From: Candidatus Omnitrophota bacterium
GTDB lineage: Bacteria; Omnitrophota; Gorgyraeia; Gygaellales; Profunditerraquicolaceae
Direction of reading: 5' to 3'
Assembly (NCBI GenBank): GCA_041651115.1
Contig: JBAZJY010000005.1
Location: 6,405-70,404, forward strand
DNA: 64,000 nt
Part shown: one piece after another, positions 4,111 to 32,500 of the stretch
Layout of the letters: every line of letters begins with the position of its first letter
Position numbering within the stretch: the stretch's first letter is position 1
The notes under the pieces: generated by a model
Told to the model about the DNA's origin: nothing
The model's database searches: none
The model's input: the letters and a program-made list of their open reading frames with translations, nothing else
Translations under genes and position numbers: made by a program

Positions 4111-6264
4111 ATGGCTAAGACAATAGTAGTATTCAGCACAAAAGGCGGCGTGGGTAAAACCCTGGTCGCCTCCAACCTTGCCGTATCATTGGCCAAGGAC
4201 CAGAACCAGCGGGTCTGCCTCCTGGATTTTGACCTCCAGGCGATCGGCGACATGTCGCGGATGCTCGGGCTTAACCCCGAAAGGTCGCTGGTAGATATGC
4301 TGGAGCCTTTGAAACAGCAAGGCGCTGATTTTAAAAAAGACCAGTTTTTCAACCGCAATGCTTTTGGAGTTGACTTCTTACCCGCAGTTTTAAAACCCCA
4401 GCATATCCCCAGCCTTAACCCCGAAGGAATAAGAAATGCCTTCAGCCTGCTGGATAAAGAGTACGATTATATCATCGTCGACGGCGGTAAAAGTTTTAAC
4501 GACGCTTTTATGGCGGCATTAAATCAAGCCAATCTTATCCTGTTGGTAATTACTCCGGATATTCTTTCCATATATCAAACTAAACTGGCATTTGATACGC
4601 TGCAGTTCCTGCATTTCCCGCTTTCAATGCTGCGCATCGTTTTAAACCGCGCTGAATCGCTGGCAAGCATCAGCTGGCAGGAGATCAGGGCAAATCTGCC
4701 CGTAGATATCGTTTCGCTTATTCCGTCGGAAGGCAGGGTCGTCGGCCAGGCAGTGAACCGCGGTATACCGGTTGTCGTTGATAATCCCCGCTCAAAGATT
4801 GGCCTGGCAATAAAGAAACTCGCCTTTGATGTTACTAAAGACAGCGGCCTGTTTATTGAGCGCCGTAATTTAGACGAGCTGCAGCTTAAGGAAGAGCCGT
4901 TTGAGAAGTCGGGCGACTTTTGGAAAAAACAGGGCCTCTCGGAAACAATCGCCGAATCCGCATATTCCGAAGAAAGGGATGAAATACAACTTTTAAAACG
5001 CAGGATCCATAACCGCTTGATTGATGAGCTTGATTTGAAACGGCTGGATCTGAAGGTCTTTTCCGACGCTAAGAAAAACAGAGAGATAAATGATAAAGCC
5101 GAGATCCTGGTTGCTAATCTTTTGGCGGATGAAGCCGGCAGCCTGATCTCTTCCCAGGAAGAGCGTAAGAAGATCGTCAAGGAAATCTTAAACGAAGCCT
5201 TGAGGCTCGGGCCCCTGGAAGATTTACTTGCTGACCCGGATGTCACCGACATCATGGTCAACAATAAGGATGAAGTTTACGTAGAACGCAGGGGAAGGAT
5301 TGAGCGGACTGATAAAAAATTCGTTTCCAATATTCAGGTAAAGACGGTTATTGAGCGTATTATTGCGCCCATCGGCAGGCGTATTGATGAAAGCGTTCCA
5401 ATGGTAGATGCCCGCCTGCCTGACGGTTCGCGCGTAAACGCGATCATCCCGCCGCTTTCGCTGACCGGCCCGGCGCTGACAATCAGAAAATTCCGCAAGG
5501 AAAGGTTTAAGATAGACGAGTTGATCGGGATGAACAGTTTAAATTCGGCAATGTCTATATTCTTACAGGCATGCGTAGCCTCGCGCAAAAATATCATTGT
5601 TTCAGGCGGCACAGGTTCCGGTAAAACTACGGTATTGAATGTCTTGTCCGGTTTTATTCCCGACCGGGAGCGCATTATCACCATTGAAGACGCGGCAGAA
5701 TTAAGGCTGCACCAGACCCATTGGATAAGGCTGGAATCACGGCCTCCGAATATTGAAGGAAAGGGCGCGGTGACCATCCGCGATCTTTTCCGTAATACCC
5801 TGCGTATGCGGCCGGACCGCATCATCATCGGCGAATGCCGCGGCATTGAGACATTAGACATGCTCCAGGCAATGAACACCGGCCACGACGGGTCTATGAC
5901 CACTATCCATGCCAATTCCACGTTTGATGCATTAACCAGGCTTGATTCAATGATCCTGATGTCCGGCGTGGACCTGCCGGTCAGGTCAATACGCGAGATG
6001 ATCGCTTCAGCGATTGATATGATTGTCCACACTGCGCGGCTTGCCGACGGCACGCGTAAGATTACCCAAGTAAGCGAGATCTCCGGTATGAAGGAAGACG
6101 GGCACATTGGGCTGCAGGATGTTTTTATGTTCAAGCAGACCGGCATTGACAAGCAACAGATGGCAATAGGTAATTTCTATGCTACCGGATATGTGCCATC
6201 GTTTATTGAAGAAATGAAAGTAAGAGGCATTGCCCTTCCCGAAGATCTCTTCAAAACCCCGTGA
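4111..6264 (+). CDS. fused CpaE/TadZ-like ParA-family ATPase (N-terminal) and CpaF/TadA secretion ATPase (C-terminal)
   Basis: N-terminal deviant Walker A KGGVGKT (MinD/ParA family, as in CpaE/TadZ). C-terminal half has Walker A GGTGSGKTT, RIITIEDAAEL, GHDGSMTTIHANS and a T2SSE-family His box. One continuous 717-aa ORF. Confidence 0.8.
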   Translation: MAKTIVVFSTKGGVGKTLVASNLAVSLAKDQNQRVCLLDFDLQAIGDMSRMLGLNPERSLVDMLEPLKQQGADFKKDQFFNRNAFGVDFLPAVLKPQHIPSLNPEGIRNAFSLLDKEYDYIIVDGGKSFNDAFMAALNQANLILLVITPDILSIYQTKLAFDTLQFLHFPLSMLRIVLNRAESLASISWQEIRANLPVDIVSLIPSEGRVVGQAVNRGIPVVVDNPRSKIGLAIKKLAFDVTKDSGLFIERRNLDELQLKEEPFEKSGDFWKKQGLSETIAESAYSEERDEIQLLKRRIHNRLIDELDLKRLDLKVFSDAKKNREINDKAEILVANLLADEAGSLISSQEERKKIVKEILNEALRLGPLEDLLADPDVTDIMVNNKDEVYVERRGRIERTDKKFVSNIQVKTVIERIIAPIGRRIDESVPMVDARLPDGSRVNAIIPPLSLTGPALTIRKFRKERFKIDELIGMNSLNSAMSIFLQACVASRKNIIVSGGTGSGKTTVLNVLSGFIPDRERIITIEDAAELRLHQTHWIRLESRPPNIEGKGAVTIRDLFRNTLRMRPDRIIIGECRGIETLDMLQAMNTGHDGSMTTIHANSTFDALTRLDSMILMSGVDLPVRSIREMIASAIDMIVHTARLADGTRKITQVSEISGMKEDGHIGLQDVFMFKQTGIDKQQMAIGNFYATGYVPSFIEEMKVRGIALPEDLFKTP

Positions 6265-6608: not shown

Positions 6609-6725
6609 GGTATTGGGTTAGGGTTAAGATGCCAGTATGGTAGGTGGGTTAAGGTTAAGGATTAATGGCCTAACCTCAACCTCTAAACCATACCGGCTTC
6701 TTGACCGTAACCTTAACCATAGCCT
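6603..6725. repeat. ~120-bp palindromic hairpin repeat (GGTTAAGG / CCGGTATGGTA family), copy 1
   Basis: Left arm ggttaaggtattgggttagggttaag..ccagtatggta..ggttaaggttaagg, and right arm cctaacc..aaaccataccggcttc..ccttaaccatagcc is its reverse complement. The same architecture recurs at 19377, 20634/21199, 21364 and 29199. Confidence 0.8.
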
Positions 6726-6730
6726 ATCTA

Positions 6731-6795
6731 ATGTCCATTGACAATCCCTATCTTTAATGATATTCTGGCTTTATAAATGTCCAATCTGAGGAGAG
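6731..6795 (+). promoter_or_regulatory. pair of AATGTCCA(A/T)T boxes overlapping a candidate sigma70-like promoter and RBS for the 6797 gene
   Basis: Boxes at 6731-6741 (aatgtccattg) and 6775-6787 (aaatgtccaatct). TTGACA (6738-6743), 17 nt, then TATTCT. GAGGAG RBS 6788-6793 before the ATG at 6797. The same box recurs at 21313, 21343, 29131 and 29161. Confidence 0.4.
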
Positions 6796-15099: not shown

Positions 15100-16428
15100 A
15101 TGATCAAGATATCCCGGAATAAAGCGCGTTATGAAAAAGGCCAGATATTCCCGTTTCTTATTGCCGTATTGGTAGTCATTTTGATCGCAATAATGATTAC
15201 GGTCAACCTTGGCCAAGTCGGGATGCTTAAGGTTGATACATCCAATGCGGCAGATGCCGGAGCGCTTGCCGCGGCCAGCACTTTAAGCGGTTATTTGTTG
15301 GGTTTTGGCCTAAAAAGCGATTTTATGGAAGCGCATATGATCACTACCGAAATCTGGGCGGTGATTAACTTTCTGGTGCATTGCGGGGATGGGCCTTATG
15401 GCTGGATAGTCGGACTGGTCCTGGCGCTTATCACCCATATCGCCGGCATGATCAAGAACTTCATAGAATATTTTATCGCGCTCACCGAAGGTAAAATGGC
15501 TTGGGGCCAGGCGAAAAAAACTGCTTTTCAGTATGCTTTTCAAAACGCCGGGGTAGATGAGGTGCGGCCGACTTTCCGGCAGTTCCTGGAGGGCGTATAT
15601 GGGATTTCCGGCGATGAAATAAACGATGTTTCGCCGGCAGACATGGCGCATTACTACAATGTTTATTCCATTGGCGATGATCCCAATAACGCCGGCTTAA
15701 GAAGCCTGATAAAGCAATATACGCAAACCGGATTTAACAAATATATGGAAGAAGCCAGGTATTGGAGATGGGGAAAGATCGCGCCGTGGGAAGGGACTTT
15801 TCCGCCGCGCGTGACTTCCGGTTACGGGTGGAATGATGATGGCACAAACGTCTGTACGGGCAGTAATGATTGCAGGGTTAATGAAGGCGAAGCGTATAAA
15901 AATTACGAAAACTGGGTAGAAGTTGAAATAATGGGTAACATAATGTATCCCCTTGATATATACAGCCCGCTTGCCGAACTTTTTGAAGCGGCCAGGGACC
16001 GGATCCTTGATGCGATTGAAGATGCAGATATGTGGGGCTGGGTAGAAGATATAGCCGATTTCGTCGTCAATCTGATATTCGGAATTACTGCCGGATCTAC
16101 GCAATTTACTTTTCCCGCCGGCTTGGAAATGAGCCCCATAGTGCCCAATACAAGACAAAATCCCATGCATGTCTGGGTCAGGCGCTACAAGAAGAATAAA
16201 GATATTGGACTATGGAATTTTGATTATGGAACCAGCGAATCGTATGCCCAGGGACGCGCTTTTGGCGAAAGAGGAACTGAAGATATTACGCCTGCATTAA
16301 GCGGCCAGATATCGGGATTTATAACCCAATGGATTGACAGCGGAGATAAGCCGGAAGTAGATGACATGTATGACATGTTTGATACCAGTCAGCATTTGTT
16401 TGAAACCGAAATTTCATACGCGAGGTAG
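15100..16428 (+). CDS. TadG-like pilus assembly protein
   Basis: KGQIFPFLIAVLVVILIAIMITVNLGQVGMLKVDTSNAADAGALAAASTL matches the TadE/G-like N-terminal signature (hydrophobic helix, then VD...A.DAAALAAA). Confidence 0.6.
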   Translation: MIKISRNKARYEKGQIFPFLIAVLVVILIAIMITVNLGQVGMLKVDTSNAADAGALAAASTLSGYLLGFGLKSDFMEAHMITTEIWAVINFLVHCGDGPYGWIVGLVLALITHIAGMIKNFIEYFIALTEGKMAWGQAKKTAFQYAFQNAGVDEVRPTFRQFLEGVYGISGDEINDVSPADMAHYYNVYSIGDDPNNAGLRSLIKQYTQTGFNKYMEEARYWRWGKIAPWEGTFPPRVTSGYGWNDDGTNVCTGSNDCRVNEGEAYKNYENWVEVEIMGNIMYPLDIYSPLAELFEAARDRILDAIEDADMWGWVEDIADFVVNLIFGITAGSTQFTFPAGLEMSPIVPNTRQNPMHVWVRRYKKNKDIGLWNFDYGTSESYAQGRAFGERGTEDITPALSGQISGFITQWIDSGDKPEVDDMYDMFDTSQHLFETEISYAR

Positions 16429-19376: not shown

Positions 19377-19473
19377 AGGTTAAGGTTAGGGTTATGAAGC
19401 CGGTATGGTAGTTAGGTTAGGGTTAAGTGTCAATAACCTAACCTTAACCACTAAACCATACCGGTATCCTTAC
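19377..19473. repeat. palindromic hairpin repeat, copy 2
   Basis: ggttaaggttagggttatgaagccggtatggtagttaggttagggttaag, loop, then aacctaaccttaaccactaaaccataccggtatccttaccctaacc. Sits between tadC and the lipoprotein gene. Confidence 0.8.
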
Positions 19474-19487
19474 CCTAACCATACACT

Positions 19488-20024
19488 ATGAGATACAAAC
19501 TATTTTTTCAAAAGTCATATAGTCTACTAGTACTGCTGCTTTGCCTTGCCGGGTGTACTTCAGAATGGACCCGCTACGTTAATAAAGAACATAAGCTATC
19601 CATACTCCTGCCTGCTTCGTGGGAAAAAGAAGAAGGGGCTTTTAAGACCGTGATTATTGCCTTAGCGCCCCTTGATACAACCAAGCCCAAGCTTTCCCGT
19701 GTCCGGACAAATATAAACGTTATTGCTTCCGAATTGCCTACACCCGTTGATGTAAGCACGCTTTTTGAATTGAATAAGACCGAGCTAGGCACTAAGCTGG
19801 CGAGGATGGATGAATTCCTTGAAGGTGATATATATGCGGGAACTCTGCGCGGTAAATGGCTGTCTTTTGAGGGGTTACTGCGCGAGGCGAGAGTGAAAAT
19901 AATCAGCGGCATCTGGGTAAAGGACAGGCGCGTTTATAGCGTTACTTGCACTGCCCGTACAGATGAGTTCGCGAAATACGATCCGTTATTCCAGAAGGTA
20001 CTGCGCAGCCTGCGCGTCAAATAA
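19488..20024 (+). CDS. lipoprotein, possibly PsbP/DUF1795-like (family assignment tentative)
   Basis: Lipobox LLCLAGC. ILLPASWEKEEG...NVIASELP...AGTLRGKWLSFEG...RVYSVTCT. Confidence 0.55.
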   Translation: MRYKLFFQKSYSLLVLLLCLAGCTSEWTRYVNKEHKLSILLPASWEKEEGAFKTVIIALAPLDTTKPKLSRVRTNINVIASELPTPVDVSTLFELNKTELGTKLARMDEFLEGDIYAGTLRGKWLSFEGLLREARVKIISGIWVKDRRVYSVTCTARTDEFAKYDPLFQKVLRSLRVK

Positions 20025-20070: not shown

Positions 20071-20601
20071 ATGAAGCCTCGATTCTTTCCAAAATTATGT
20101 GTTTTACTGCTGTTGGTGCCTTTTCTATGCAGCTGTGAATTCGGCTGGAAACAGTATATTAACGAAGATAATGATTTTTCTATATTATTGCCTGCTTCAT
20201 GGGAAAAACAAGAAGATGTGTTTGATGCGGCATTGATTGTCTTGGCTCCCGTAAAAGGCAAAAATAAAAACCCGCCGGTCAGGGCGAATATGAATATCAT
20301 CGTCGCTGACTTGCCGGCAAGGGCGGACCTGGATATAGTTTTTGATTTTAACAGAACCGAGCTTTCCAGCAAACTGGCAAGAATAGACGATATCATTGCA
20401 GGCGATATCTATGCCGGTCCATTACTCGGCAGGCAGGTTTCATTTGCGGGCCTGCTTAGCGGATTCCAAGTGAAGATAATCAGCGCCAACTGGGTAAAAG
20501 GCAGGCGCGTTTATACCGTTACCTGCACCTCCGCCCTAAATGAATTCCCCAAATACGAGAAAACATTCAAAAAAATGTTCCGCACCCTGCGTATTAAGTA
20601 G
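20071..20601 (+). CDS. lipoprotein, tandem paralog of 19488-20024
   Basis: Lipobox FLCSC. ILLPASWEKQED...NIIVADLP...AGPLLGRQVSFAG...RVYTVTCT, collinear with the upstream paralog. Confidence 0.55.
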   Translation: MKPRFFPKLCVLLLLVPFLCSCEFGWKQYINEDNDFSILLPASWEKQEDVFDAALIVLAPVKGKNKNPPVRANMNIIVADLPARADLDIVFDFNRTELSSKLARIDDIIAGDIYAGPLLGRQVSFAGLLSGFQVKIISANWVKGRRVYTVTCTSALNEFPKYEKTFKKMFRTLRIK

Positions 20602-20633: not shown

Positions 20634-21260
20634 TCGTTAGGTTTAGTAATTAGGTTATGGTAAGGAAGCCGGTATGGTAGTTAGGTTATGGTTAAGTATA
20701 AAACCCGGATCGTTTTTTGAATTTAGTCCAAGACATTGACAGCTTATATAATTGCCTGCCCGAGATATCATATGAAGTAATAAGCTCATCGCATAGTTGC
20801 ATATTTATGGCATAGGAATATATATCTTTACACTGATTTAGACTCACTACCGTTTCATTACATTCTCCCATAGCATCATCAAGGTATTTTTGAAACCCCA
20901 TTTTTTGGTGTCTCTTGGCATAGCCTTCAGCTATCAATCTTGGGATAGCCTTACATGATCTCGCCAGTTGGTCTTTTAAATCATATTTTTCGTTATCAGG
21001 TAATCTCGGGATAATTTTTGTCATTACCTCTATGGCAGCTTTATAAGTGTTTTGGTACACATTCAAATCACAAAAACTTCTAATTGGTTTTTTAATTTCC
21101 ATAATTTGGTCCTATTTCTTCAGCTAGACTTAGAATACGATCGCCTTCTGTAATAATAGACGAATAAACAGAATAAATCTAACTCAAAAACATGTCATTT
21201 TAACCTAACCTTAACCCTTTAAACTATACTGGTTTCTTTACCATAACCTTAAACATAACC
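20634..21260. mobile_element. IR-flanked cassette: arms of the hairpin-repeat family enclosing a four-helix-bundle gene
   Basis: Left arm 20634-20696 (..ggttatggtaaggaagccggtatggtagttaggttatggttaag). Right arm 21199-21260 (aacctaaccttaacc..aaactatactgg..ccataaccttaaacataacc) is its reverse complement. In copies 1, 2 and 5 the arms abut across a short loop. Here they are ~500 bp apart with a gene between. Confidence 0.5.
20692..21102 (-). CDS. four-helix-bundle protein (23S rRNA intervening-sequence / Avd-like family)
   Basis: SFCDLNVYQNTYKAAIEVMTKIIPRLPDNEKYDLKDQLARSCKAIPRLIAEGYAKRHQKMGFQKYLDDAMGECNETVVSL matches the conserved F-x-DL-x-VWQ / IAEG signature of this family. Only convincing minus-strand gene in the window. 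Confidence 0.7.
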   Translation of the reverse strand: MEIKKPIRSFCDLNVYQNTYKAAIEVMTKIIPRLPDNEKYDLKDQLARSCKAIPRLIAEGYAKRHQKMGFQKYLDDAMGECNETVVSLNQCKDIYSYAINMQLCDELITSYDISGRQLYKLSMSWTKFKKRSGFYT

Positions 21261-21363: not shown

Positions 21364-21437
21364 TGGTTAAGTCAGCTTATAACCTAACCTTAACCGCTAA
21401 ACTATACCGGTATCCTTGCCCTAACCTTAACCATAAC
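21364..21437. repeat. hairpin-repeat family, partial copy (short left arm ttggttaagtca plus full right arm)
   Basis: ttggttaagtcagcttataacctaaccttaaccgctaaactataccggtatccttgccctaaccttaaccataacc. Confidence 0.6.
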
Positions 21438-21561
21438 CAGGCTTATATACATAACTGAAGAAAGCGTTATCAATATCCGTATCTTTATACCTTGATAGAT
21501 ATATGCTTTGTGCTATACTTTTTGTGCTAATTATTTAAATATAAAAGTAATATAAATATAT

Positions 21562-24500
21562 ATGATGAATCCAACCTCATTACTTGAAAGAAGAAAAATG
21601 ACAAAGGCCGGATTTTTTACTTTCGGGTTTCTTAGAAAACAAAAATGGCTTAGCGTGATCCTGGCGCTGGCCTTTTTGCTTAATACTATTTCACCTGCTT
21701 TTGCGCGCGAGGGAAATTCCGGCAGACGGACTTCTCTTGAAATGTACGGCCTCGGCGCATTAGCCGGCTCCGCTTTAGGCGCCTCTATCCTTATCGGTTA
21801 TGAAACCGGCCAATGGTGGGGCGTTGCCGCTGCCGCAGCCGCAAATATGGCAAGCGACCTTACCGGCCTTGTGATGTATTACTATTTTTATGAGAGCTAC
21901 GGGGAAACCGCAACAGTATTCGGAAAAGAACTTAAATTCGGCAATGTAGAAATTAGCAAAGGAATGCTTTATTCAATGTATGCCGGAACGATCACCGGCG
22001 CGCTTGTTGGTATTGTGGGAGGCCTGGCCTCTGGTGCTTCCAGCGGCGCAAGTTCAAGCCTTGAAAGCGGCGCAAGTTCAGGCATTGAGAGTGCTGCTGC
22101 TAGCGCCGGGGAAGGTGCTGTGTCAGGCGCGGCTACCGGTGCTGCGTCAGGCGCGACATCTGGTGCTGTAGCAGGCGCAGCCAATAGCGTGATTACAGCT
22201 ATTGTGAATGCCGCAAAAGCCCTCTGGCAAGCTATCGTGAATGCAGCCAAAGCCATTTGGACAGCGCTTAAAAACGCTTGGCAAGCTATCGTGAAATTTT
22301 TTGATCGTCCTCTTAAGGAAATATTAAAGTCAGTCGGAAAAGCCCTTTGGGAGAACGTATTAAAGCCGATTTTAGAGCCTATCTGGAAGAATCTCATTAA
22401 GCCTATCTGGAACTTCATTACGCACCCCATTAGGACAATAAAGGATTTTTTTGCTAGAATCGCGAAAACTGCGGCAGACAACAATATTAATTGGTTAAGA
22501 GCAGCAATAAGAGTTGTGTATAAGCTTGATAAGCTTAAACCCGGCAGCGTTGCCAATCCTTATATCCGTTACGGAGCAGAACGCTCTTTTGGAGCTGCGT
22601 TTGCGCATTTAGTAGGCGACCTGGTTATTAATACGGCAAAGCTGTTTTTCAGAGAAACAATAAAGCAGAACCTTGAGAAAGGATTTGAGATCACGATTGG
22701 TAAAGGTAAGAATAAGAAAACGCTCATTGCAATTGACGAGCAAGATGAAACTATCGCCGAGATCGCTGCCGATATCGCAACCATATATTTTTCAGCATGT
22801 ATCACTCCGACAGTAAGGATACTTTTGGGCAACTTAATGCACGTGTATGGAGGCAAGGGCAAGTTTGTTCTTGATAACCAGGGCGGATACTTAAGTAAGG
22901 AAGGGGAAGGCTTTATTGATGAGGGCGTAACCTATGAAATTGACGCAGTAGAGATGAATTCTCAGGAAATCAACAGGCGCCTGGAAGCCAAGCAAATTAA
23001 GGGTGACGCAATGGTGAAAGTTACCCGTGACGGAAAAACCGAAGAGATAAAGGCTGAAGCGGTAGCCAATATGTTAAACGGCAAGAATTACACCGTTACC
23101 CTGCAAGCCGACGTAACTTTAAACGGCGAAACCGTGAAAGCCGGCACAAAGATAGCCGTTAATGCGACAGAGTTTACTAACCTTTGGCAGCAGGAAGGCG
23201 TGATCAACAAATCCGGTTCCGTAGATGTCACTAATACAGATGGAGTAACGCAGCAGATCAGCGCGGAGGCGGCATACGCAGGCGCAGTTAATATTTTGAG
23301 CGCCAGTTATACTGCCGGGATTACCATAGCCGCCCACGACTATTTCCAGATGCGGGAAAGTGAAACGATCAAAGAAGGCAGCACGCCTGTGCGCGTTACT
23401 TCTGCCGACAAAAAAAATCAGGTTGATACTACTGCCAAAGAATTAGACGGCGTTTTTAACGATACCTATGTGCAGCTGGAAATGGCCCGGCGGCTGGAAA
23501 ATAAAATCATTACTTTTCAAGACGCTGCCACCGGCGAACTGCATGAAATGAAAATGAGCGAGGTTGCCCGGGAAATAGCCCCGAATAAAGACGGCACAGT
23601 AGGCGTACAAAACGATAACGGCACTTATAGCGTAGTAATAAACGGCAAGGAAGTTATAGTTGACGCTGCCACATCTGCTCAACTGCACAGCAATCTTGTT
23701 GCCTACGCTACTATCATGGCAAGCAGTGCCCATCAGACCGCGCTCGCCTTAACCGGTGGACTCTTAAACGACATTCACGGCAATCCCGTAAGCAGTAAAC
23801 CGCTTAAGGCAGGCTTGCAGACCATGCGCAGCATCGGCCTGCATCCTCTTGTCGGCGCGGGAGTAAAAATACTTGCTTTGAAATTGATGAAGTACCGCAC
23901 GCATTACGGCGATGAAAGCGGCCGCGTTGCGGAAAACGCGAAAAAAATGGCAATTGCTGATTTCTTCGGCAATCTTGCTTCGTCAGCAGTGGCCAATTCC
24001 TCGCGTTTCAATACTTGGTATGCCGGCACAGATGAAAATCCATATGTGCAAAGGGGCGACTCCGGTGAATATTTAGGCAGGGAATATGCCCAGCGAATGG
24101 GCAAAGAATTTGTTACACAAACCGCCCTATTGGCCAATGAATTAGCTTGGGCAAATTATTGCAAGAAAAAAGACATTACTCCCGATGCGTTAGATGAAGT
24201 AAGGCATCTGGCAGCAGGTTCGCTTGTTAGCGGCTTGGTAGATGCAATTTACCGCCGCGATCCCGGCACCGTAGAGAAAAAAGACCAGGTGCTGGTAGAA
24301 ACCAGCGGTATGGCATCTGGCAACGGAGAGCTTATGTTTGTAGACCGCGACAGCCTTACCGAGAGCACATATGACAAAGATACCTTTTTATTCAAGGTTA
24401 ACGGCGAGGACCTAAGAGGTAAAATCAGAACACTTGATAATAAAGAAAAAGTATTCCTTAATGAAGATGACGTTCTCTTTGTCGGCGCCAAGGCGCCCGA

Positions 24501-27500
24501 CGACAACAAGAAGTGGTCTGCGGTAACATGGCAGACGAATAACGCTTCTGTAAAAACAGGCGGGCAGGTATCTTATAATGTTACATACGACGTGTCTTCC
24601 CGGCTTAATGATCCTCAATTCCAGAGCAGGCAGAATCTGACCGCTGGCAAGTTTGTAAAGAGCGTGGCGCAGGATTTCAATAACCATTTTATACAGGCGG
24701 CCGCGCGCAGCAGCCTGTATTTATCTCCGATGTTTACGCCCGGCACAGGCCCGGCAGGATTTTTGGCGCAGCAGCAGATGCAGGACCAGTGGATCCAGCA
24801 CATCCAAGGCATGGCGCAAGGCACTGGCCCGGGAATGCTGATGGCCAACCGCCTTGGCGGCAACATGCGCTATTATGCCAATATGAACGTTGCCGATTCG
24901 CTCGGCGCGGCAATCACCAATCGCTTTATGCGCCAGGAGCTGCGTTCTTATGCTACCTTCATGACTACGCAAGAAAAACTCCAGTATTTGCAGGTTACAG
25001 AAGAGAAAAATCTGAAACGGAAAGTAGAATTATTGGGTAGCCTGCGGGCTTTTAATAAAGAATATGGCGGTGACATTAATAAATTGAATGCAGACATAGA
25101 GCAGGCGAATATAGATCTGGCAACAGCGGAACAGGCCGGGCGCGTTGATGAGGTCAATACCATGCGCAAAGCGCTGGAGACGATGTACGGCATGGTAATA
25201 GCTGCAGATGAAGTTTTAAAGAAAGCTTACAGCCTGCAAATCGTCCGCGCTAACGAAGTTTATAGCCTTCCCGCAGAGGCGCAGTCAAGAATCTTTAATG
25301 ATTTAATGCCGGAAGTAATAGACGGCCTGCAAGCGGACGTAGATGCCTCTGCTTATAAGATTGGGGCCATGGAAAGGGCTAAGGGTTCGCTGGGCATACT
25401 CTCCAGCGTGCCTATCCTCGGCGCAATGATCCAGTCAGCCGTGCTTTCTAACCTGGCGACATCAACCGGCCAGGCGCAAGGCATAAATGATTTTATTATC
25501 GGCGGTATAGTTGATTATAATGTTGACCGCACTTTTGATATCTATGCGCCGATGAGCGGCTATACGGCAGGGGCGCTGGAAAGCACGGTAGATAACAGCG
25601 CGAAAACAACGCAGATGAGTGAAAAAGATAAACAGGCTTTCCGTTCGCTTTTAAAAGATCCCGAGCTCAGGAAGCGCAGCGAGCTTAGAAGCAATTATTC
25701 AATGTCGGTTGCCGGGGTTTATCAGGGCAGTGAAAGCTACGCCAATACTCCGCTTTTGAATGCAAGCGGCATCTCGCAGGAGGTAAGGTCAACAAGAATG
25801 GAGCTTAGGGAAGCCGAGACCGGCGGTAAGGCGCTGGTAGTAACAGATTCTACAAAAATAGATGCCATTAACGTGATTAAAGAAATGAGAAAAAATAACC
25901 CGAATGTTGAGGCATTTACTTATATACCGGAAGATAAGGATAAAACACCGGAGCAGGTTGAAACTGCGCTATATGAATTAAAGACCGGCAGGGTGTTGTT
26001 CTCCGATTATGGCCTGACCAGTCGCACCACAGTTGATCAGTTCGGCCGCGCCGTAGAAACCAGGCATTATGCCCCCGACTTTGTTTTTAGCGATATCGGG
26101 AGTGAATGGCAAACCGGCATAGAGCAGGATGTGATCACCCGGCATTATTACGGGCCGTTTGGCCACGCGGTTTCCATTACTACCGACTATACGCAGATAG
26201 GGGTTCCTGATGCGGATAACTGGCCGGGAGCAAAAGATTGGACTATCGGCATGGGCAAGGTATGGAATGATCTGGCCGCGGAATTCAAGGTTGTCGGCGT
26301 AACGCCCGAGCAGCTTGCCGGAAAATTAGGCATTGAACTCACTGGCCAGGAAAGCGCAGAAGAGCTGCAGGTTAAATTCACCAGCTTTCTGCAGGAAAAG
26401 CTCAAAGAAGGGCCTGATGCGATTGAGAAAATTGATGCAGATATTAAAACTTTTGCCGGTAGCTTAAATGTTGAGCCGAAGAATATCGGCGGCGATTTCA
26501 GCAATTATATTCCTAAGATCAAAAAATATGTTTATGCTACAGATCCCAAGACAGGAGAATACCGTACTGATAAATCCGGCCGCTTAATCCCTATCGGCAG
26601 CGTGCTTAACGCAAAGGCGGCGCAAACTCAGCGTTTCCTTGCTGCAGCGCAAAATTTAAGGGAGGGCAAACCTATAGAATATTCATACGCAGGTAAGGAG
26701 GATTATCAGGTAACCGCCCTCAAGGTTCCTCAAGAAGAAATTGATAAGAGCAGGGCTCTTGTGACCCAGGACATGCTTGAAGAATTTGCCGGCTTTGCAA
26801 CAGACGTATACGGTAAAAAGGTCAGGGCAAAGGATATCAACATGAATACGCCCTGGGGCGGCATCCTTGCGTATATGGCGGTTAACCCGCAGCCGGATGG
26901 CCGTAAATGGTCAGAGCTGACAACTGATGAAAAGCAGGACATCTTTGCGGGTGTAACTGCATGGAGGCTTCTAACCTACGGATTATACGCAGAGGATCCG
27001 AACGTAAAGCAAACCATTCCTAATAATCAAAGCACTTTGACCCTTTTCTTAGGCAGCGGCGCTGATCAGATCCGCGGCGCCAACTATTTATACGTGCCTG
27101 CGATCGCCGGGCAGAAAATGGAACCTTTGAAAACTACCCTAACCGGGCCCGAAGGCTATTATCAGCCGGTTTCTGTCGGCCCGAATTACAGCTACGATAT
27201 CAGTATTTATTCTACCGGAGAGGGCAAGACCCCGTATTCCGGGCCAAGCCACAGGGCCAGCGTCAGCGATATTAATTCCGGCCCCGCGCTCAATGCCGCT
27301 GCGCAGTACACGCTTCCGACAGATGCCGTTGAGCGGCAATTGCAGCAATTGGTTTATAACTTTGCAGCTACCGATTTTAAAGGCGCTGACCAGCGCGCAG
27401 AATTGATCGGCTTTATGAAAAATGAACTGGGTATAGACGAAGAAGATGCTATTGCAAAAGTAGATAGGTTAAATTCAAGAGAATATGGTAGAGAATTTTT

Positions 27501-29109
27501 GGAAGGCATACAGGAAAAAGTAGATGAATCCAGGATCAACCTTGATAAGATCACGCAGGCGCCGCTTACGCTTACTGCTACTACTGCGCAAACAGAAACT
27601 CCAAAACTAAAAACTCAGGCTCTTCCCAATATGTCTTTTCCGGATTTAGATAGAACTAAATGGGCAATGCAAAGGCTTGAGGGCCAGGATTTAGAAGTAT
27701 ATACCGCGGTGCAGAATAAACAACAGGAATTAAATAGCAATTTAAACCGCGACCTGTCTAATGTCAAACAAATGCAGTTCTTTGAATATAAGGATATTGG
27801 CGGCAGGACACTGATGCTTCCGACATGGGGCATGAGTATGGGTTCTGTTTTGCAGACGCGGGATGATGCTATGGCAGCTGCCATAAATCAGGAAGAATTA
27901 AGGTTCAGCAAGCTCATGGCCTATAATTATGACAGGCAAGGCATAGAAACTTCCATTGACAAAGGCTACAAGGAAGCGTTGGTTAGCGGCAATGATTTCC
28001 TTACTAACATGTTCAAAGAAACCAAGACCCTTCCCATAAACGGCCATAGCTTAGTAATGGAGCCTAATAATAATGGCATGTTGGGAGCTTTTTACGATCG
28101 TTCAACTACGGTTTATGTGCCGGGAGAATATGGCAGCTATGACGCCGCACTTCCCGAGGGTACCTACAAGTATGACGGAAGGGGTTCTGCGGATGTTATT
28201 CAGAGAAGCCAATTAAGGCTAAAAAATTCAGAAGAAGCAAAATTGGTCCCGTTAGACGGCAGGTCTACTTCTACGAACACGGCCGCGGCGCCGGTAATTA
28301 ATAATCCGCCGGTACAAACAGCGCCTGCGCCGGTTACAGGCCCTGACCTGCAGTCGCAGGAAGCAGAGCTTAAACCGCTTAAGCCTATCGTAAAACCTAT
28401 ACCAAACAATATTGATCAATCAATCCCGCTGTCCCGGGCATATCCGCAGCAGCAACCTGTAAGTGTTAATACAACCGTGCCTGAATTGACCGACGAGCCG
28501 GCAGTTGAAACAATAAAACAGGAAACTGTAACCGTACCCCAATATGACCTAAAAGATTACATCCAGCTTGAAACAGCTGTTTTGAATATGGCCCCTACCC
28601 TAGGCGTAGGCGACATCGGCTTCTTATCCCAATGCGCTCAATATGGAACAATCGATAGCGATAATATCAATAAGATCGTGCCTTTGTTTGCAGAAGCAAG
28701 AAAAAATGGCGCGATTGATGATATGGGGTTAGTATACCTAGAGCAGTTTATGTCTATTAAAAAGATACCAATAGTACCAGAGGGCTCTGTTCGAGAAGGT
28801 GACGTTACAGCACTTGCTTTGGCAGAAGAAGAAGCTCTCAAGCAAGGAAATGTAGTAGAGATCCCTCCTATCATAACTTCGGAAAATTCCGAGGCATTTT
28901 TTACCACAATAGGCAATCAAGATTTTGTCAATAGATTAGGGAGGAATAACGAAGCTATATATGGATTCTACTCGGCTTTGAATAAACTATCGGATAGCGG
29001 TAAGGTATCTCCAGACAATCTGTTGAAAGTCACGGATTATTTACGCGATCATCCAGACGAGATTGAGTATTCCCGCAGAACCGGTGAGCTAAGAGGTTTT
29101 GAGAAATAA
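21562..29109 (+). CDS. giant secreted/surface protein (2,515 aa), function unknown
   Basis: Uninterrupted ORF. N-terminal signal-like segment WLSVILALAFLLNTISPAFA. Gly/Ala/Ser-rich low-complexity block. Trp-containing amphipathic 11-mer repeats (AIVNAAKALWQAIVNAAKAIWTALKNAWQAIV...KPIWKNLIKPIWNF). Pro-rich segment near 28280-28400. No recognised catalytic motif. Confidence 0.7.
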   Translation: MMNPTSLLERRKMTKAGFFTFGFLRKQKWLSVILALAFLLNTISPAFAREGNSGRRTSLEMYGLGALAGSALGASILIGYETGQWWGVAAAAAANMASDLTGLVMYYYFYESYGETATVFGKELKFGNVEISKGMLYSMYAGTITGALVGIVGGLASGASSGASSSLESGASSGIESAAASAGEGAVSGAATGAASGATSGAVAGAANSVITAIVNAAKALWQAIVNAAKAIWTALKNAWQAIVKFFDRPLKEILKSVGKALWENVLKPILEPIWKNLIKPIWNFITHPIRTIKDFFARIAKTAADNNINWLRAAIRVVYKLDKLKPGSVANPYIRYGAERSFGAAFAHLVGDLVINTAKLFFRETIKQNLEKGFEITIGKGKNKKTLIAIDEQDETIAEIAADIATIYFSACITPTVRILLGNLMHVYGGKGKFVLDNQGGYLSKEGEGFIDEGVTYEIDAVEMNSQEINRRLEAKQIKGDAMVKVTRDGKTEEIKAEAVANMLNGKNYTVTLQADVTLNGETVKAGTKIAVNATEFTNLWQQEGVINKSGSVDVTNTDGVTQQISAEAAYAGAVNILSASYTAGITIAAHDYFQMRESETIKEGSTPVRVTSADKKNQVDTTAKELDGVFNDTYVQLEMARRLENKIITFQDAATGELHEMKMSEVAREIAPNKDGTVGVQNDNGTYSVVINGKEVIVDAATSAQLHSNLVAYATIMASSAHQTALALTGGLLNDIHGNPVSSKPLKAGLQTMRSIGLHPLVGAGVKILALKLMKYRTHYGDESGRVAENAKKMAIADFFGNLASSAVANSSRFNTWYAGTDENPYVQRGDSGEYLGREYAQRMGKEFVTQTALLANELAWANYCKKKDITPDALDEVRHLAAGSLVSGLVDAIYRRDPGTVEKKDQVLVETSGMASGNGELMFVDRDSLTESTYDKDTFLFKVNGEDLRGKIRTLDNKEKVFLNEDDVLFVGAKAPDDNKKWSAVTWQTNNASVKTGGQVSYNVTYDVSSRLNDPQFQSRQNLTAGKFVKSVAQDFNNHFIQAAARSSLYLSPMFTPGTGPAGFLAQQQMQDQWIQHIQGMAQGTGPGMLMANRLGGNMRYYANMNVADSLGAAITNRFMRQELRSYATFMTTQEKLQYLQVTEEKNLKRKVELLGSLRAFNKEYGGDINKLNADIEQANIDLATAEQAGRVDEVNTMRKALETMYGMVIAADEVLKKAYSLQIVRANEVYSLPAEAQSRIFNDLMPEVIDGLQADVDASAYKIGAMERAKGSLGILSSVPILGAMIQSAVLSNLATSTGQAQGINDFIIGGIVDYNVDRTFDIYAPMSGYTAGALESTVDNSAKTTQMSEKDKQAFRSLLKDPELRKRSELRSNYSMSVAGVYQGSESYANTPLLNASGISQEVRSTRMELREAETGGKALVVTDSTKIDAINVIKEMRKNNPNVEAFTYIPEDKDKTPEQVETALYELKTGRVLFSDYGLTSRTTVDQFGRAVETRHYAPDFVFSDIGSEWQTGIEQDVITRHYYGPFGHAVSITTDYTQIGVPDADNWPGAKDWTIGMGKVWNDLAAEFKVVGVTPEQLAGKLGIELTGQESAEELQVKFTSFLQEKLKEGPDAIEKIDADIKTFAGSLNVEPKNIGGDFSNYIPKIKKYVYATDPKTGEYRTDKSGRLIPIGSVLNAKAAQTQRFLAAAQNLREGKPIEYSYAGKEDYQVTALKVPQEEIDKSRALVTQDMLEEFAGFATDVYGKKVRAKDINMNTPWGGILAYMAVNPQPDGRKWSELTTDEKQDIFAGVTAWRLLTYGLYAEDPNVKQTIPNNQSTLTLFLGSGADQIRGANYLYVPAIAGQKMEPLKTTLTGPEGYYQPVSVGPNYSYDISIYSTGEGKTPYSGPSHRASVSDINSGPALNAAAQYTLPTDAVERQLQQLVYNFAATDFKGADQRAELIGFMKNELGIDEEDAIAKVDRLNSREYGREFLEGIQEKVDESRINLDKITQAPLTLTATTAQTETPKLKTQALPNMSFPDLDRTKWAMQRLEGQDLEVYTAVQNKQQELNSNLNRDLSNVKQMQFFEYKDIGGRTLMLPTWGMSMGSVLQTRDDAMAAAINQEELRFSKLMAYNYDRQGIETSIDKGYKEALVSGNDFLTNMFKETKTLPINGHSLVMEPNNNGMLGAFYDRSTTVYVPGEYGSYDAALPEGTYKYDGRGSADVIQRSQLRLKNSEEAKLVPLDGRSTSTNTAAAPVINNPPVQTAPAPVTGPDLQSQEAELKPLKPIVKPIPNNIDQSIPLSRAYPQQQPVSVNTTVPELTDEPAVETIKQETVTVPQYDLKDYIQLETAVLNMAPTLGVGDIGFLSQCAQYGTIDSDNINKIVPLFAEARKNGAIDDMGLVYLEQFMSIKKIPIVPEGSVREGDVTALALAEEEALKQGNVVEIPPIITSENSEAFFTTIGNQDFVNRLGRNNEAIYGFYSALNKLSDSGKVSPDNLLKVTDYLRDHPDEIEYSRRTGELRGFEK

Positions 29110-29130
29110 AACTAATAAAAATATTAAATT

Positions 29131-29172
29131 AATGTCCAATCTGAAATAAAATCGCTTATAAATGTCCAATCT
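29131..29172 (+). promoter_or_regulatory. two direct AATGTCCAATCT boxes, 30 bp apart, between the giant genes
   Basis: aatgtccaatctg at 29131 and aatgtccaatcta at 29161, followed by ttggttaagtca and hairpin repeat copy 5. Confidence 0.45.
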
Positions 29173-29198
29173 AAAATAAGAGTCTTAATTCCAATATT

Positions 29199-29321
29199 GG
29201 TTAAGTCATTAGGTTAAGGTTAAGAGGCCAGTATGGTAAATAGGTTATGGTTAAGTGCCAAATAACCTAACCTTAACCCCTAAACCATACCGGCTTCCTG
29301 ACCCTAACCTTAACCTAATTA
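29199..29321. repeat. palindromic hairpin repeat, copy 5
   Basis: ggttaagtcattaggttaaggttaagaggccagtatggtaaataggttatggttaag, loop, then aacctaaccttaacccctaaaccataccggcttcctgaccctaaccttaacc. Confidence 0.8.
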
Positions 29322-29527
29322 CCCTTTTATTACCAATAAGTTTTAGCTCTCCTTAAGAAGAAAACGCTACCAAAAATCACCGACAAAATTCTTGACAACT
29401 ACTATATATATGTTATATTTAGAGTGTCATTCCTGAACAATATTACCGAATAGAAAAATGAAGTTCGGTTTTTATATTGCTACTTAATAATGAGTTTTAA
29501 AAAGTACCGCTAAAACTCACAAAAAAA

Positions 29528-32500
29528 ATGGAAAACCCGGCTAACAAAGCTGAAAGAAAAATGGGGGAAAGGGGGAATTTGTCGGTTCCCCTTTTCTATT
29601 TAGGTACTAATAAGAAACAAGAAAATCTTTCAGCGGTCGTTGATGAGCCACAATTTAAATCCAAGTTCAAAACCTGGATCAGAGTTGTGGCTTTTATTGT
29701 GGTCGCGGTATTCCTGCCGGAGCAGGTAGCGCAGGCAGTAGAATATGATTGGCGCGTGCTCTGGCAGAAGCCGGCGGCAATGGGCAATGCGTTTGCGCCT
29801 GCGTATTTGGCGGACACAAAGAACCTTGATATCCCTATTGCCGTAAGAAACATCCTCAAAGACGTTGCCGGCAAACCGATCACATCAATAAAAATTTCTC
29901 CTACGCTTACAGTTGACCTGCCCAAGCCACTGAATATTTCCAAACAAAGAATTGAAGAGATCTTTAATTGGCTACAGGGCAGGCCTTGCGGTTCCAAGGC
30001 GCTGTATGATCTATTAAGTTATGGCGGCGCCAAGGCAACAGAGCAGGATATTGCCGTATTCGCCCTGACCGTGGATATCTTAAGCGGTACAGTCAAGCCA
30101 GAGGGTAACCCGGAAATAATCAAAAATTCCCTCTACGCCTTAGCTAAAGCTTCCGAATTTTTCGGCGTTAAACTTTATCCGGCCAAGGTTAATAACCAAA
30201 CACCTAACACCCAGCACCTAACACCTTTTATTGTCCACTTGAGCAATGATCACTATGTTCTCGTTACCAACATCACTCCGGAAAAAGTTTATTATATTTC
30301 AAACCACAAAGAAGAATTCATCCCCACGGAGAAATTTAATGCCAGATTCACCGGCTATTGTTTGGTATCTGAGATAAAAGGCAGCCTTGAAGCAATAAGC
30401 GAAGAAGAGGCCAAGAAAATAAAAGGCGCCAGCGATTGGGGCGATAATTATAGCTATGACGCCGGCACTTATGGCTCCAACAGCTATTACACCAACAATT
30501 ATAGCAACAACTACAATTACAATAATTATAATTCCGGCTATACCGGATTTGATTACCGCCGCAATAATGCTAATCTTAATCTTAACCCGTTCGGCGTTAA
30601 CTTGACGTTAAACAACGGCTCAAGGCAGCAAGCCATACAGCAGGTCTGGGGTTTTGAAACCCGCTATAACCAGCCCAACACAAAAAATTATGCCAGTTTT
30701 TATACTAGCCTTAATAAGCCGATAACCGGCTATTATAAAGATAGCGGCAAGGGCCTTGTCTTAGACAAAGGCAAATTTGGCAATACCTGGCTTACTCCGG
30801 GAGGCAGCTCCATTTCTACCCCGATCACCGGTATTAACAATTGGCAGATCGGCAGCAATAGCGGGGCGGTAGCGTATAAGACAGCGAGCAAGGATTTTGC
30901 TAAATTTGACGACCGGATGACGGTTTGGGTAGGCTCAACGCCAAGCGCAGTATTTGCCCAGAGTTTGAATTTAAATAAAGAATCGTTCTACAAGAGTAAT
31001 TTTGAGACCGGCACAAATCTGCCCGTATGGCATTTTACGCCGATGATGAATACTTTCTTTAACCCGGAAGAGATCGGCAAGGCAGGCGCAGGTTATACTC
31101 CGCCGATCGGCGCTCCTTCGCCCGTAGCTTCACAGTTTTCCATTAATCCCGTAAAAGCAAGTAACGGCAGCGCCATAGGCGTAAAAGACGGATTTTTTGC
31201 CATGGGCGGCCTGAAAGATAAGCCATTCCAGATCAACCTTACCAATGCCGGTGTAACTATCAGGCCGGGCAGCACCATCGGGGTGAGTACAGATTATAAA
31301 AGTGTAGCCGGAAGCACAGCCGCATTTAATAAATATTTTATTCCCGGTCAGCAATTCAATCTTGAGTCCGGCGTTGAATCCCAATTCCATTTCCAACCGC
31401 AAGTGCAGTCAGGCAGATCCTTGGTGTTACAGCCGGGTAAAGGCGTTTTAAGCATGGCCAATACCGGCCGCGATGACGTGCGCTTTGTCGGCACCGGATA
31501 TCTGCAGGGTTTTGATAAGACGTACAGCGCTGCCATATTTACCCGCGAATTAAAAAAGGATAATTGGAAAATTGATTTTAAAGATGAGATGCCGACTTTA
31601 AGCAGCTTGAATAAAGCGGCGAAATCAGCCGGAGAATTACGCAGCCGCACCAGTGAAGGCTTTGAAAGAATAGCCAAGATCCAGAATTGGCATGGTCAGG
31701 ATGATGTCATTACGGGTTTTAGGGCGCAGGGCGACTGGGTCAGGCCGATCACAACTTTGCCCGGAGCTGCTGGTGAAGATAATAAGCGCTATGACAGCTG
31801 GGTAGGCGGCACAGGCACGATCGGCAACCTTGGTAAGGAAACCTTAGAGTTGCATAAGGCCCAGTTCAATATGGGCGTTACCAAAGACGGCCTTGATTTT
31901 ACGCCTACACTCTGGGGTAAATGGAATATCCGCGATAACGCGGTAAAGATCCAGGGTTTGAATTTCCGCGGAGAAAAACTCTTCAATGCCAAAGACGGAT
32001 TTTATTCCGACAGAAAATTAGATGTAGATATTTACGAGATCCTTGACCGCGACAGCCATGGCATTATTACCCGTGCCCCGCTTGTATCCGCAGCGAAATT
32101 AGCCACCTTTACTCCGAAGAGCGGATGGAAAGAGCTGCCGCGTTCGTCTGATACGCAATTCAAGTCAATAACTCAATATACACAGTCTCCTGATACCGGC
32201 GAACTGCAAACAATTAACCGTGCCCTTGGAACCTTGACTAAAGATAATAAGATCCTTATTGATAAAATTGTTTATAGCGCAGTGGAAGTTCCGGAAGCGC
32301 AACTGGGCGCGGACAAGGCAAGCCAGGCTGGCCTGAACGAAAAGCACCGCATTGCAGCTTGGAACACGAGCCTGTTCGCAGACAAGAAATATACATATTT
32401 TTCAGAAAGCGGAGATACTAAACTTCAGCACGCGGCGAACTTAACCTTAAAAATGACTGCGGATAAAAAATATCTCCAGGGCACAGGCCTGGATTATTCG

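Follow-up and report, generated by a model that had tools for sequence, protein, structure and literature searches.

A large, putatively exported protein with tape-measure-like repeats encoded next to the giant gene of an Omnitrophota Tad-type locus

The DNA considered here, referred to as the window, is a stretch of 64,000 nucleotides (nt) from Candidatus Omnitrophota bacterium (contig JBAZJY010000005.1 of assembly GCA_041651115.1), and the focal gene is a large one on its forward strand, to which all coordinates below refer unless a minus strand is indicated. The gene is real; its maximal open reading frame (ORF) runs uninterrupted from 21562 to 29109 and comprises 2,515 codons plus stop. 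On its 5' side lies a Tad-type locus (600–20601). On its 3' side, after a gap of 419 nt, follows a co-oriented giant gene (29528–64000) that is open to the window end and encodes more than 11,490 amino acids (aa). The co-oriented, directly adjacent placement of these two genes, on which an initial annotation made from the sequence had relied, is therefore correct. In the known Tad-pilus/giant-gene cassette of Omnitrophota, the giant gene has a constant upstream partner, and the focal gene is a member of that partner family.

The genomic context of this partnership was collected for 17 distinct loci, the window included, and compared by local tblastn with the window proteins. In all 12 loci with downstream DNA, the next large gene 3' of the family gene is a giant ORF on the same strand. 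The recorded lengths of these neighbouring ORFs reach 13,523 aa, with many ending at a contig edge. Over their N-terminal ~1,000 aa, the giant proteins are 28–40% identical to that of the window, and carry a membrane anchor and a Peptidase_C39 domain. The gap between the family gene and the giant gene is between −19 and +9 nt in L001, L005, L006 and L014; a small extra gene precedes the giant gene in L002 (343 aa) and L012 (108 aa). Upstream, Tad or PsbP-like genes are found within 10 kb of the family gene in 12 of the 14 loci with upstream DNA. The suspicion that the protein and these genes are partners in one system thus gains strong support, and the co-occurrence analysis that had been proposed to check it finds the homologues linked to giant genes and Tad loci, and not scattered.

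In passages from three reports (10.1101/2023.11.21.568195; 10.64898/2026.06.07.730766; PMC10066038), Omnitrophota giant genes with an N-terminal C39 domain are described as following a conserved locus that resembles type II secretion (T2SS) and Tad systems and includes a Rotamase_2 peptidyl-prolyl isomerase (PPIase); a role in predation is proposed for these loci. The Tad locus and giant gene of the window agree with this description. The former encodes a PPIase, RcpC/CpaB, a secretin with TonB_C, a TadZ–TadA fusion, a TadG-like protein, TadB, TadC and two PsbP-like proteins; the latter has an N-terminal membrane anchor, a Peptidase_C39 domain (aa 201–281, at about 30128–30370; E = 5e-8) and a RelA_SpoT domain. 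The same passages make no mention of a gene of 2–4 thousand amino acids (kaa) between the Tad locus and the giant gene. The locus type is already known; the component examined here and its family appear undescribed in the literature searched.

The giant protein itself offers some further detail. The Cys motif (C-G) and the His motif (H-Y) of its C39 domain are seemingly kept, as judged by eye, and the RelA_SpoT nucleotidyltransferase domain lies ~7,200 aa into the protein, at about 51209–51595. The first 10,000 aa gave no Pfam match besides these two domains.

The N-terminus of the focal protein requires a correction. In family alignments, the relatives' MKKGDFLAFSFFKK.RW aligns with M13 of the focal protein (MTKAGFFTFGFLRKQKW), and the NCBI entry for the same protein, a hypothetical protein from a Candidatus Omnitrophota metagenome-assembled genome (MAG), starts at M13 and has 2,503 aa. 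For both reasons, ATG 21598 is probably the true start codon. The 2,515-aa gene proposed initially thus stands as a reading frame but not in its start codon, the likely product being 2,503 aa long. Searches of the whole protein against Pfam, NCBIfam and PDB sequences returned nothing significant, and the absence of a recognisable enzymatic motif is borne out by zero matches in the first two. The protein has no similarity to the adjoining giant gene and no internal BLAST repeats. A split or paralogous copy of the giant gene was considered and rejected; there is no similarity between the two, and the longest relative of the focal protein has 3,801 aa.

The family came to light only in an exhaustive search. 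Word-index searches of 5.8 billion proteins, made with the full-length protein, with aa 321–2515 and with a 36-sequence profile, recovered only the focal protein itself, and a metagenome scan with the single focal protein found no match. Exhaustive HMMER with aa 200–1399 recovered representatives of 38 clusters; for 31, E was 1e-10 or lower. The word-index scan had missed all 38, even with their own sequences in the profile, which exposes a gap in that search method. Almost all relatives are 1.4–3.8 kaa long and 24–37% identical to the focal protein; their clusters are tiny, and mostly singletons. With one exception, the named relatives are hypothetical proteins of Candidatus Omnitrophota/Omnitrophica; the exception is annotated as a peptidoglycan DD-metalloendopeptidase family protein.

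BLAST aligns the relatives in collinear blocks at aa 13–450, 680–915, 1027–1150, 1430–1560 and 1750–2190, with conservation highest at aa 1–200 and 700–900 and lowest after aa 2200. N-terminal family motifs are ..ALIFLFN.C.PAWA followed by R-x-G-N-x-G, then ASDxTGxxMYYxxYxxYG, KGQFWSMVAG, ANPYYRYG and DETIA; from the core onward these are joined by IYENxWKMALA, DAxFRRDPG, RSPGTG, TTVDxFGR...HYYGPFG and GPNxxY..SPYxGPS...DIxSGP. The members share the N-terminal PAWA-R-x-G-N-x-G module, the collinear core motifs and the position 5' of a C39-type giant gene, and together they point to an undescribed, apparently phylum-restricted Omnitrophota family of 1.4–3.8-kaa proteins. The core of the focal protein has no relative outside this family that sequence, profile or Foldseek searches could detect. 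In one related locus (L007, 9995–16899), the family gene is broken into ORFs of 521 and 1,880 aa, by a frameshift, an assembly error or pseudogene decay.

Beyond the last conserved block, the relatives carry tails of 0–1,610 aa that cannot be aligned with the focal protein. Three recognisable modules occur among family members: a Peptidase_M23 domain in the C-terminal tail of P0020, a HopBA1/ChaN-Tiki-like domain in P0002 (aa 2431–2527 of 3,801), and a LysM domain in one member. SLT, caspase-like and HExxH domains had also been guessed from motifs in these tails, and were dropped after Pfam gave no confirmation.

The focal protein begins with a predicted Sec-type signal peptide (aa 13–48; 21598–21705), a rule-of-thumb call that follows the family pattern ..KW.SA..ALIFLFN.C.PAWA. 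By heuristics and family conservation, it consists of a basic n-region, a 15-residue hydrophobic core, with the h-region WLSVILALAFLLNTI, and A-F-A before R49. This signal-like N-terminus is unusually well conserved across the family; as a predicted feature, it upholds the initial description, and it makes export via Sec plausible. The predicted mature N-terminus opens with R-E-G-N-S-G (aa 49–54; 21706–21723). A48, R49, G51, N52 and G54 are at least 90% conserved in family alignments, and invariant in some. Two other kinds of N-terminus were considered and rejected: that of a lipoprotein, as no lipobox is present and the Cys is missing from the focal protein, and, by inspection, that of a double-glycine leader cut by the C39 domain of the giant protein, as the conserved G-N-x-G breaks the GG/GA/GS rule.

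Three Gly/Ala-rich, weakly hydrophobic helices follow (aa 58–79, 85–108 and 133–162; 21733–22047), around the motifs ASDxTGxxMYYxxYxxYG and KGQFWSMVAG, and are candidates for membrane insertion. A low-complexity linker comes next (aa 157–208; 22030–22185), encoded partly by 24-nt tandem repeats. With 81% Gly, Ala and Ser, it is the G/A/S-rich tract that had been noted initially. It leads into a stretch of amphipathic Trp/Lys/Pro helical repeats (aa 209–320; 22186–22521) of the phage tape-measure type LWxxVxKPxW..., which is treated in detail below. A conserved helical hairpin domain (aa 327–445; 22540–22896; motifs ANPYxRYG, xExxKQNLE and DETIA) is modelled by AlphaFold2 (AF2) with a predicted local distance difference test score (pLDDT) of ~80.

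The core consists of two conserved helical blocks (aa 715–915 and 1014–1165; 23704–25056; motifs TGGL, IYENxWKMALA, DAxFRRDPG and RSPGTG), parted by a variable insert at aa 907–1008. Long helices at aa 1136–1277 (24967–25392), which differ in length among relatives, are probably a coiled-coil stalk. Next are a conserved β-rich block with TTVDxFGR...TxHYYGPFG..S.T.DY hairpins (aa 1315–1545; 25504–26196), which looks YD-like by eye yet has no RHS_repeat profile match, and a conserved block GPNxxY..LYxTGxGxSPYxGPS...DIxSGP (aa 1842–1910; 27085–27291). An AF2 model of aa 715–1914, built from a 16-sequence alignment (pLDDT 63.8; predicted template modelling score, pTM, 0.57), shows confident helical bundles at aa ~744–904 and 1014–1164, then a long helical stalk, and β-hairpin blocks at aa ~1315–1400, 1477–1542 and 1842–1903. 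Profile searches against the PDB gave coiled-coil noise only for the core, and de novo designed helical proteins, a compositional match, for the N-terminus. A proline-rich, probably disordered linker (aa 2170–2290; 28069–28431) connects to the C-terminal region (aa 2291–2515, ~225 aa; 28432–29106), which sits where the variable modules of the family sit and has no match among the 38 relatives or in any Pfam family.

The Trp-containing stretch is the most amphipathic part of the protein, with a mean hydrophobic moment of 0.55, compared with 0.23. Seven of the 25 Trp residues of the protein fall within aa 222–311, where ~1 per 100 aa is expected (binomial P ~7e-5). Hydrophobicity has a period of 3.6–3.8 residues, and identity between shifted copies of the sequence is highest at lag 11 (25.5%). 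A strict 11-residue ruler was rejected, since [FW]-x10-[FW] pairs are no commoner than chance would give (P = 0.22). The seven or more 11-residue W repeats counted initially are thus real as an amphipathic Trp stretch with a maximum at lag 11, but only two or three clean 11-mer units can be recognised in it.

What these repeats resemble is more specific. Nine PHROG tape-measure families match aa 95–298 (best E = 1.4e-9), whereas none of nine shuffles that keep local composition matches any such family. Against 50,697 phage genomes, tblastn matched 21 records, with E from 2e-3 to 9e-3 among the matches listed; the 15 listed all fall in annotated tape-measure genes, and the reversed query found no match. 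In a single pairwise BLASTP comparison with the tape-measure protein of Gordonia phage Fribs8, E was 5e-9. The common repeat is LWxNVxKP...W..IKPxW, which reads LWNNVAKPAF...VWNGVIKPVW in Fribs8 and LWENVLKPILEPIWKNLIKPIW in the focal protein. Trp-marked units of 11 aa are a described hallmark of tape-measure proteins (PMC3271669), and the focal protein has tandem amphipathic Trp/Phe units that tape-measure profiles recognise. The lipid-binding-like character first ascribed to the repeats is not the best description of them: motif and profile matches are those of tape-measure repeats, and Trp content is not conserved in the family.

The likeness has clear limits. Like phage tape-measure proteins (phrog_58, Fribs8 gp17, 80alpha gp57), the focal protein is long and largely helical, with Gly-rich hydrophobic segments followed by tandem Trp-marked amphipathic units (LWxNVxKPxW). 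Some tape-measure proteins embed a peptidoglycan hydrolase, to which the M23 domain of P0020 offers a parallel. Unlike tape-measure proteins, which assemble in the cytoplasm, the focal protein has a Sec-type signal-like N-terminus with an AxA site, as judged heuristically. Tape-measure genes sit in tail modules, after frameshifted tail assembly chaperones and before distal and minor tail proteins, and a true tape-measure gene at L019 shows this expected phage context; the focal gene instead has Tad, PsbP-like, 23S_rRNA_IVP and giant genes as neighbours. Its family is linked to the giant gene, and usually to Tad genes, and its similarity to tape-measure proteins is partly driven by periodicity. 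The matches are confined to aa ~130–330 of 2,515, so that >85% of the protein, including the conserved core, is without such similarity; the AF2 model of the core has no significant match to tape-measure models in BFVD. The Trp region is a tape-measure-like module; membership of the tape-measure family is not claimed, because of the signal peptide, the lack of a phage tail context and the >85% of the protein without similarity. A module of this type within what is predicted to be a Sec-exported, Tad-linked protein is an unusual combination.

The favoured explanation, adopted tentatively and at slightly less than even chances, is that the focal protein may be a tape-measure-like scaffold that is exported, associates with a membrane, ends in a variable head and operates jointly with the Tad machine and the giant protein. 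The protein would be exported by Sec, held at the membrane by its N-terminal module with the Gly-rich helices, and produced together with the giant protein. It would act at the cell envelope or at the predator–prey interface, where a long helical scaffold of tape-measure type could insert into or span envelope layers and display a lineage-specific C-terminal head, either an adhesin or an envelope-degrading effector. The Tad secretin or pilus would be its probable route or platform.

The focal protein can be compared with the giant proteins of Omnitrophota ('Archaeovorins', Dockerin-type; West-Roberts et al. 2023, Nielsen & Lui 2026). The two share locus, strand and phylum; both are exported or membrane-associated by prediction, have few known domains and evolve fast, with prey contact as a proposed role. 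In contrast to the giant proteins (>=10 kaa and typically >30 kaa, with many transmembrane helices and C39/SecA_DEAD domains), the focal protein has only 2,503–2,515 aa. It is 5–50 times shorter, lacks C39, SecA_DEAD and multi-enzyme content, and belongs to a family of its own with a fixed N-terminal module. A related arrangement is known from Myxococcus, where, according to Herrou et al. 2025 (PMC12075869), the Kil system is a predator's Tad pilus machine whose Tip proteins expose variable domains to prey. These Tips are minor pilins, whereas the focal protein is far larger and has a Sec-type, not a prepilin-type, N-terminus; PF13400 (TadE/G-type) has no match in it, and does have one in the neighbouring ORF 15100–16428.

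Several observations weigh against a tape-measure-like scaffold with a variable head. Reversed sequences still match tape-measure profiles (1.1e-3 for the focal protein; 1.4e-8 for P0009, compared with 4.5e-17 for its native sequence), so the signal is partly one of amphipathic periodicity or composition. One relative, P0004, has no tape-measure profile match at all, and family members have between 0 and 11 Trp residues; what they retain is the amphipathicity. A recognisable C-terminal enzyme is present in few relatives only, and the focal C-terminus is matchless. A leader that is cleaved off is seldom conserved as strongly as this N-terminus, which might instead be an anchor that stays in place. 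Both AF2 models are mediocre (pLDDT 63.8 for aa 715–1914 and 53.5 for aa 1–470), and Foldseek comparison of these models with PDB and BFVD gave no match at E < 0.2. Finally, the sample of 17 loci is modest and comes from fragmented MAGs.

The strongest competitor, although unlikely in its own right, is an assembly or scaffold factor in the inner membrane. Here, an uncleaved N-terminal anchor would hold a protein that helps to insert, fold, process or hold the multi-pass giant protein, with no contact to prey. Conservation within the protein peaks at the signal region and the three hydrophobic helices (identity 0.30 over aa 1–200), which suits a protein–protein or membrane interface better than a leader that is discarded; the overlap of the two genes in some loci suggests translational coupling, and for the giant proteins a membrane anchor and many transmembrane helices are predicted. 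On the other hand, neither tape-measure-type repeats nor a hypervariable C-terminus that swaps M23, LysM and HopBA1-like modules would be expected of such a factor.

The preferred scaffold reading also has a bolder extension, which is improbable as it stands. It supposes that the Tad machine, the partner and the giant protein make up a single contact-dependent device for injection or attachment that borrows phage-tail logic. The Sec-exported, tape-measure-like partner would be a 'harpoon' that passes out through the Tad secretin or along the pilus and breaches the wall of the prey with a lineage-specific C-terminal head (M23, LysM or others). Its Gly-rich helices would then enter the prey membrane, and would anchor there or open a conduit for the enzymes of the giant protein.

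Two further explanations are less likely still. The first sees a lipid-binding or membrane-coating surface protein, with the 11-residue Trp repeats acting in the manner of apolipoprotein or perilipin repeats. The amphipathic moment, which is strongest here, the helical periodicity, the identity maximum at lag 11 and the amphipathicity kept by relatives would suit it, and there is an apolipophorin-III profile match, albeit a weak one (E = 0.23) and the sole match of a related kind. However, the specific motif and the significant matches point to tape-measure proteins and not to lipid-binding families, the repeats span only ~110 of 2,500 aa, and the strict 11-residue spacing of aromatics is at chance level. 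Apolipoprotein and perilipin repeats form extended arrays of 11-residue amphipathic helical units, of which 2–3 clean ones are seen here.

The second is a polymorphic toxin of the Rhs or contact-dependent inhibition (CDI) kind, which would direct a swappable C-terminal toxin against competitors, independently of the giant protein. As in such toxins (Rhs/YD, CDI), a conserved N-terminus and central part are combined with exchangeable C-terminal modules; tails vary from 0 to 1,600 aa, some members have effector-like domains, and hairpins of YD-like appearance (VDxFGR...YYGPFG) can be seen by eye. Yet neither RHS_repeat nor any other toxin-delivery family in Pfam matches at E <= 1, and the YD-like block has only ~5 β-strands. 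The family gene is followed not by a small immunity-like gene but by the giant gene, apart from the small genes in L002 and L012 mentioned above, and this linkage is invariant. Dedicated T5, T6 or T7 secretion genes are lacking nearby; PAAR, VgrG and TpsB genes were not found there.

A remnant or domesticated prophage tail tape-measure gene, unrelated to the Tad and giant-gene system, is very improbable in spite of the tape-measure profile and BLAST matches, given that genes for tail, chaperone, baseplate or capsid proteins are lacking in the window, that only ~100–200 aa are tape-measure-like, that a signal peptide is predicted, and that the position is conserved across 17 loci of divergent Omnitrophota.

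The giant genes of Omnitrophota are predicted to code for proteins that rank among the longest reported. A partner gene beside the giant gene at every locus checked provides a tractable handle on this system. With 2–4 kaa, a conserved N-terminal module and a swappable head, its product is small enough to be expressed, localised, modelled in complexes and followed in proteomes. The tape-measure-type repeats, together with the occasional wall-degrading heads, suggest a testable idea of how ultra-small predators may engage the envelope of their prey.

The focal and giant genes of the window also share their upstream regions. The initial annotation had reported the same repeat-plus-box module before both, and each indeed has the repeat, the boxes and a promoter-like site. 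The near-identical modules consist of a palindromic AACCTAACCTTAACC-type repeat, AAATGTCCAATCT boxes, an AAGAAARCG box and a sigma-70-like promoter. For the focal gene, the putative promoter (21492–21519; TTGATA-16-TATACT with a TG extension) is a consensus match only; it aligns with the equivalent site of the giant gene at 29392–29419. The latter belongs to the intergenic module at 29110–29527, which also holds two AATGTCCAATCT boxes and a complete copy of the palindromic repeat (29199–29315).

The repeat pattern with its AACCTAACCTTAACC cores and arms of ~54 nt occurs 20 times, compared with 1.6 expected. Its sites are 6616–6718, 19378–19480, 20640–20697, 21201–21254, 21379–21432 and 29199–29315; the complete copy at the last of these is predicted to form a hairpin of −52 kcal/mol (z = −7). 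Upstream of the focal gene, 21201–21254 and 21379–21432 are copies of the right arm, while the left arm (20640–20697) lies beyond an inserted 23S_rRNA_IVP gene. No AACCTAACCTTAACC core was found in the 14 related loci searched, and an Rfam scan of the window returned only a tRNA, with no family at the palindromic repeats. The repeat may be a transcript-stabilising element similar to repetitive extragenic palindromic (REP) sequences, a terminator or a regulatory element. The AAATGTCCAATCT boxes have 9 matches in the window, compared with 2.15 expected. They lie just 5' of ORF 6797 (box at 6775), of the focal gene (21284 on the minus strand, 21313 and 21342, between the two right arms) and of the giant gene (29130 and 29160), and are candidate binding sites of one common regulator.

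The inserted 23S_rRNA_IVP gene (20692–21102, minus strand; 136 aa; four-helix bundle; Pfam E = 1.8e-17) separates the left arm from the right arms of the split repeat copy. In L002 an IVP gene likewise comes directly before the family gene, and in L012 one lies a few kb 5' of it.

Within the Tad locus, the secretin (2488–4101) has a C-terminal TonB_C domain, and a single protein of 717 aa (4111–6264) joins a TadZ-like ParA/MinD ATPase to the TadA (T2SSE) ATPase. The locus closes with the tandem PsbP-like proteins (19488–20024 and 20071–20601), the second of which seems to carry a signal of the lipoprotein type. Nearly all related loci keep a PsbP-like gene in this place; chaperones of membrane-inserting effectors share the PsbP/Mog1 fold. 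Between the Tad/PsbP genes and the family gene, several related loci carry a lipid-type cassette (L001, 2285–8350; L009, 5441–9134; L010, 1936–9250; L012, 482–8474; L013, 86–1594), which is absent from the window. Its genes encode two UbiA prenyltransferases, DAGK_cat/YegS_C, an aminotransferase (fused to PP-binding in L001 and L010), a ketoacyl synthase and an epimerase, a set that resembles sphingolipid or unusual-lipid synthesis. At the other end of the Tad locus, a tRNA gene (179–253; Rfam RF00005, 60 bits) precedes the PPIase gene with which the locus opens.

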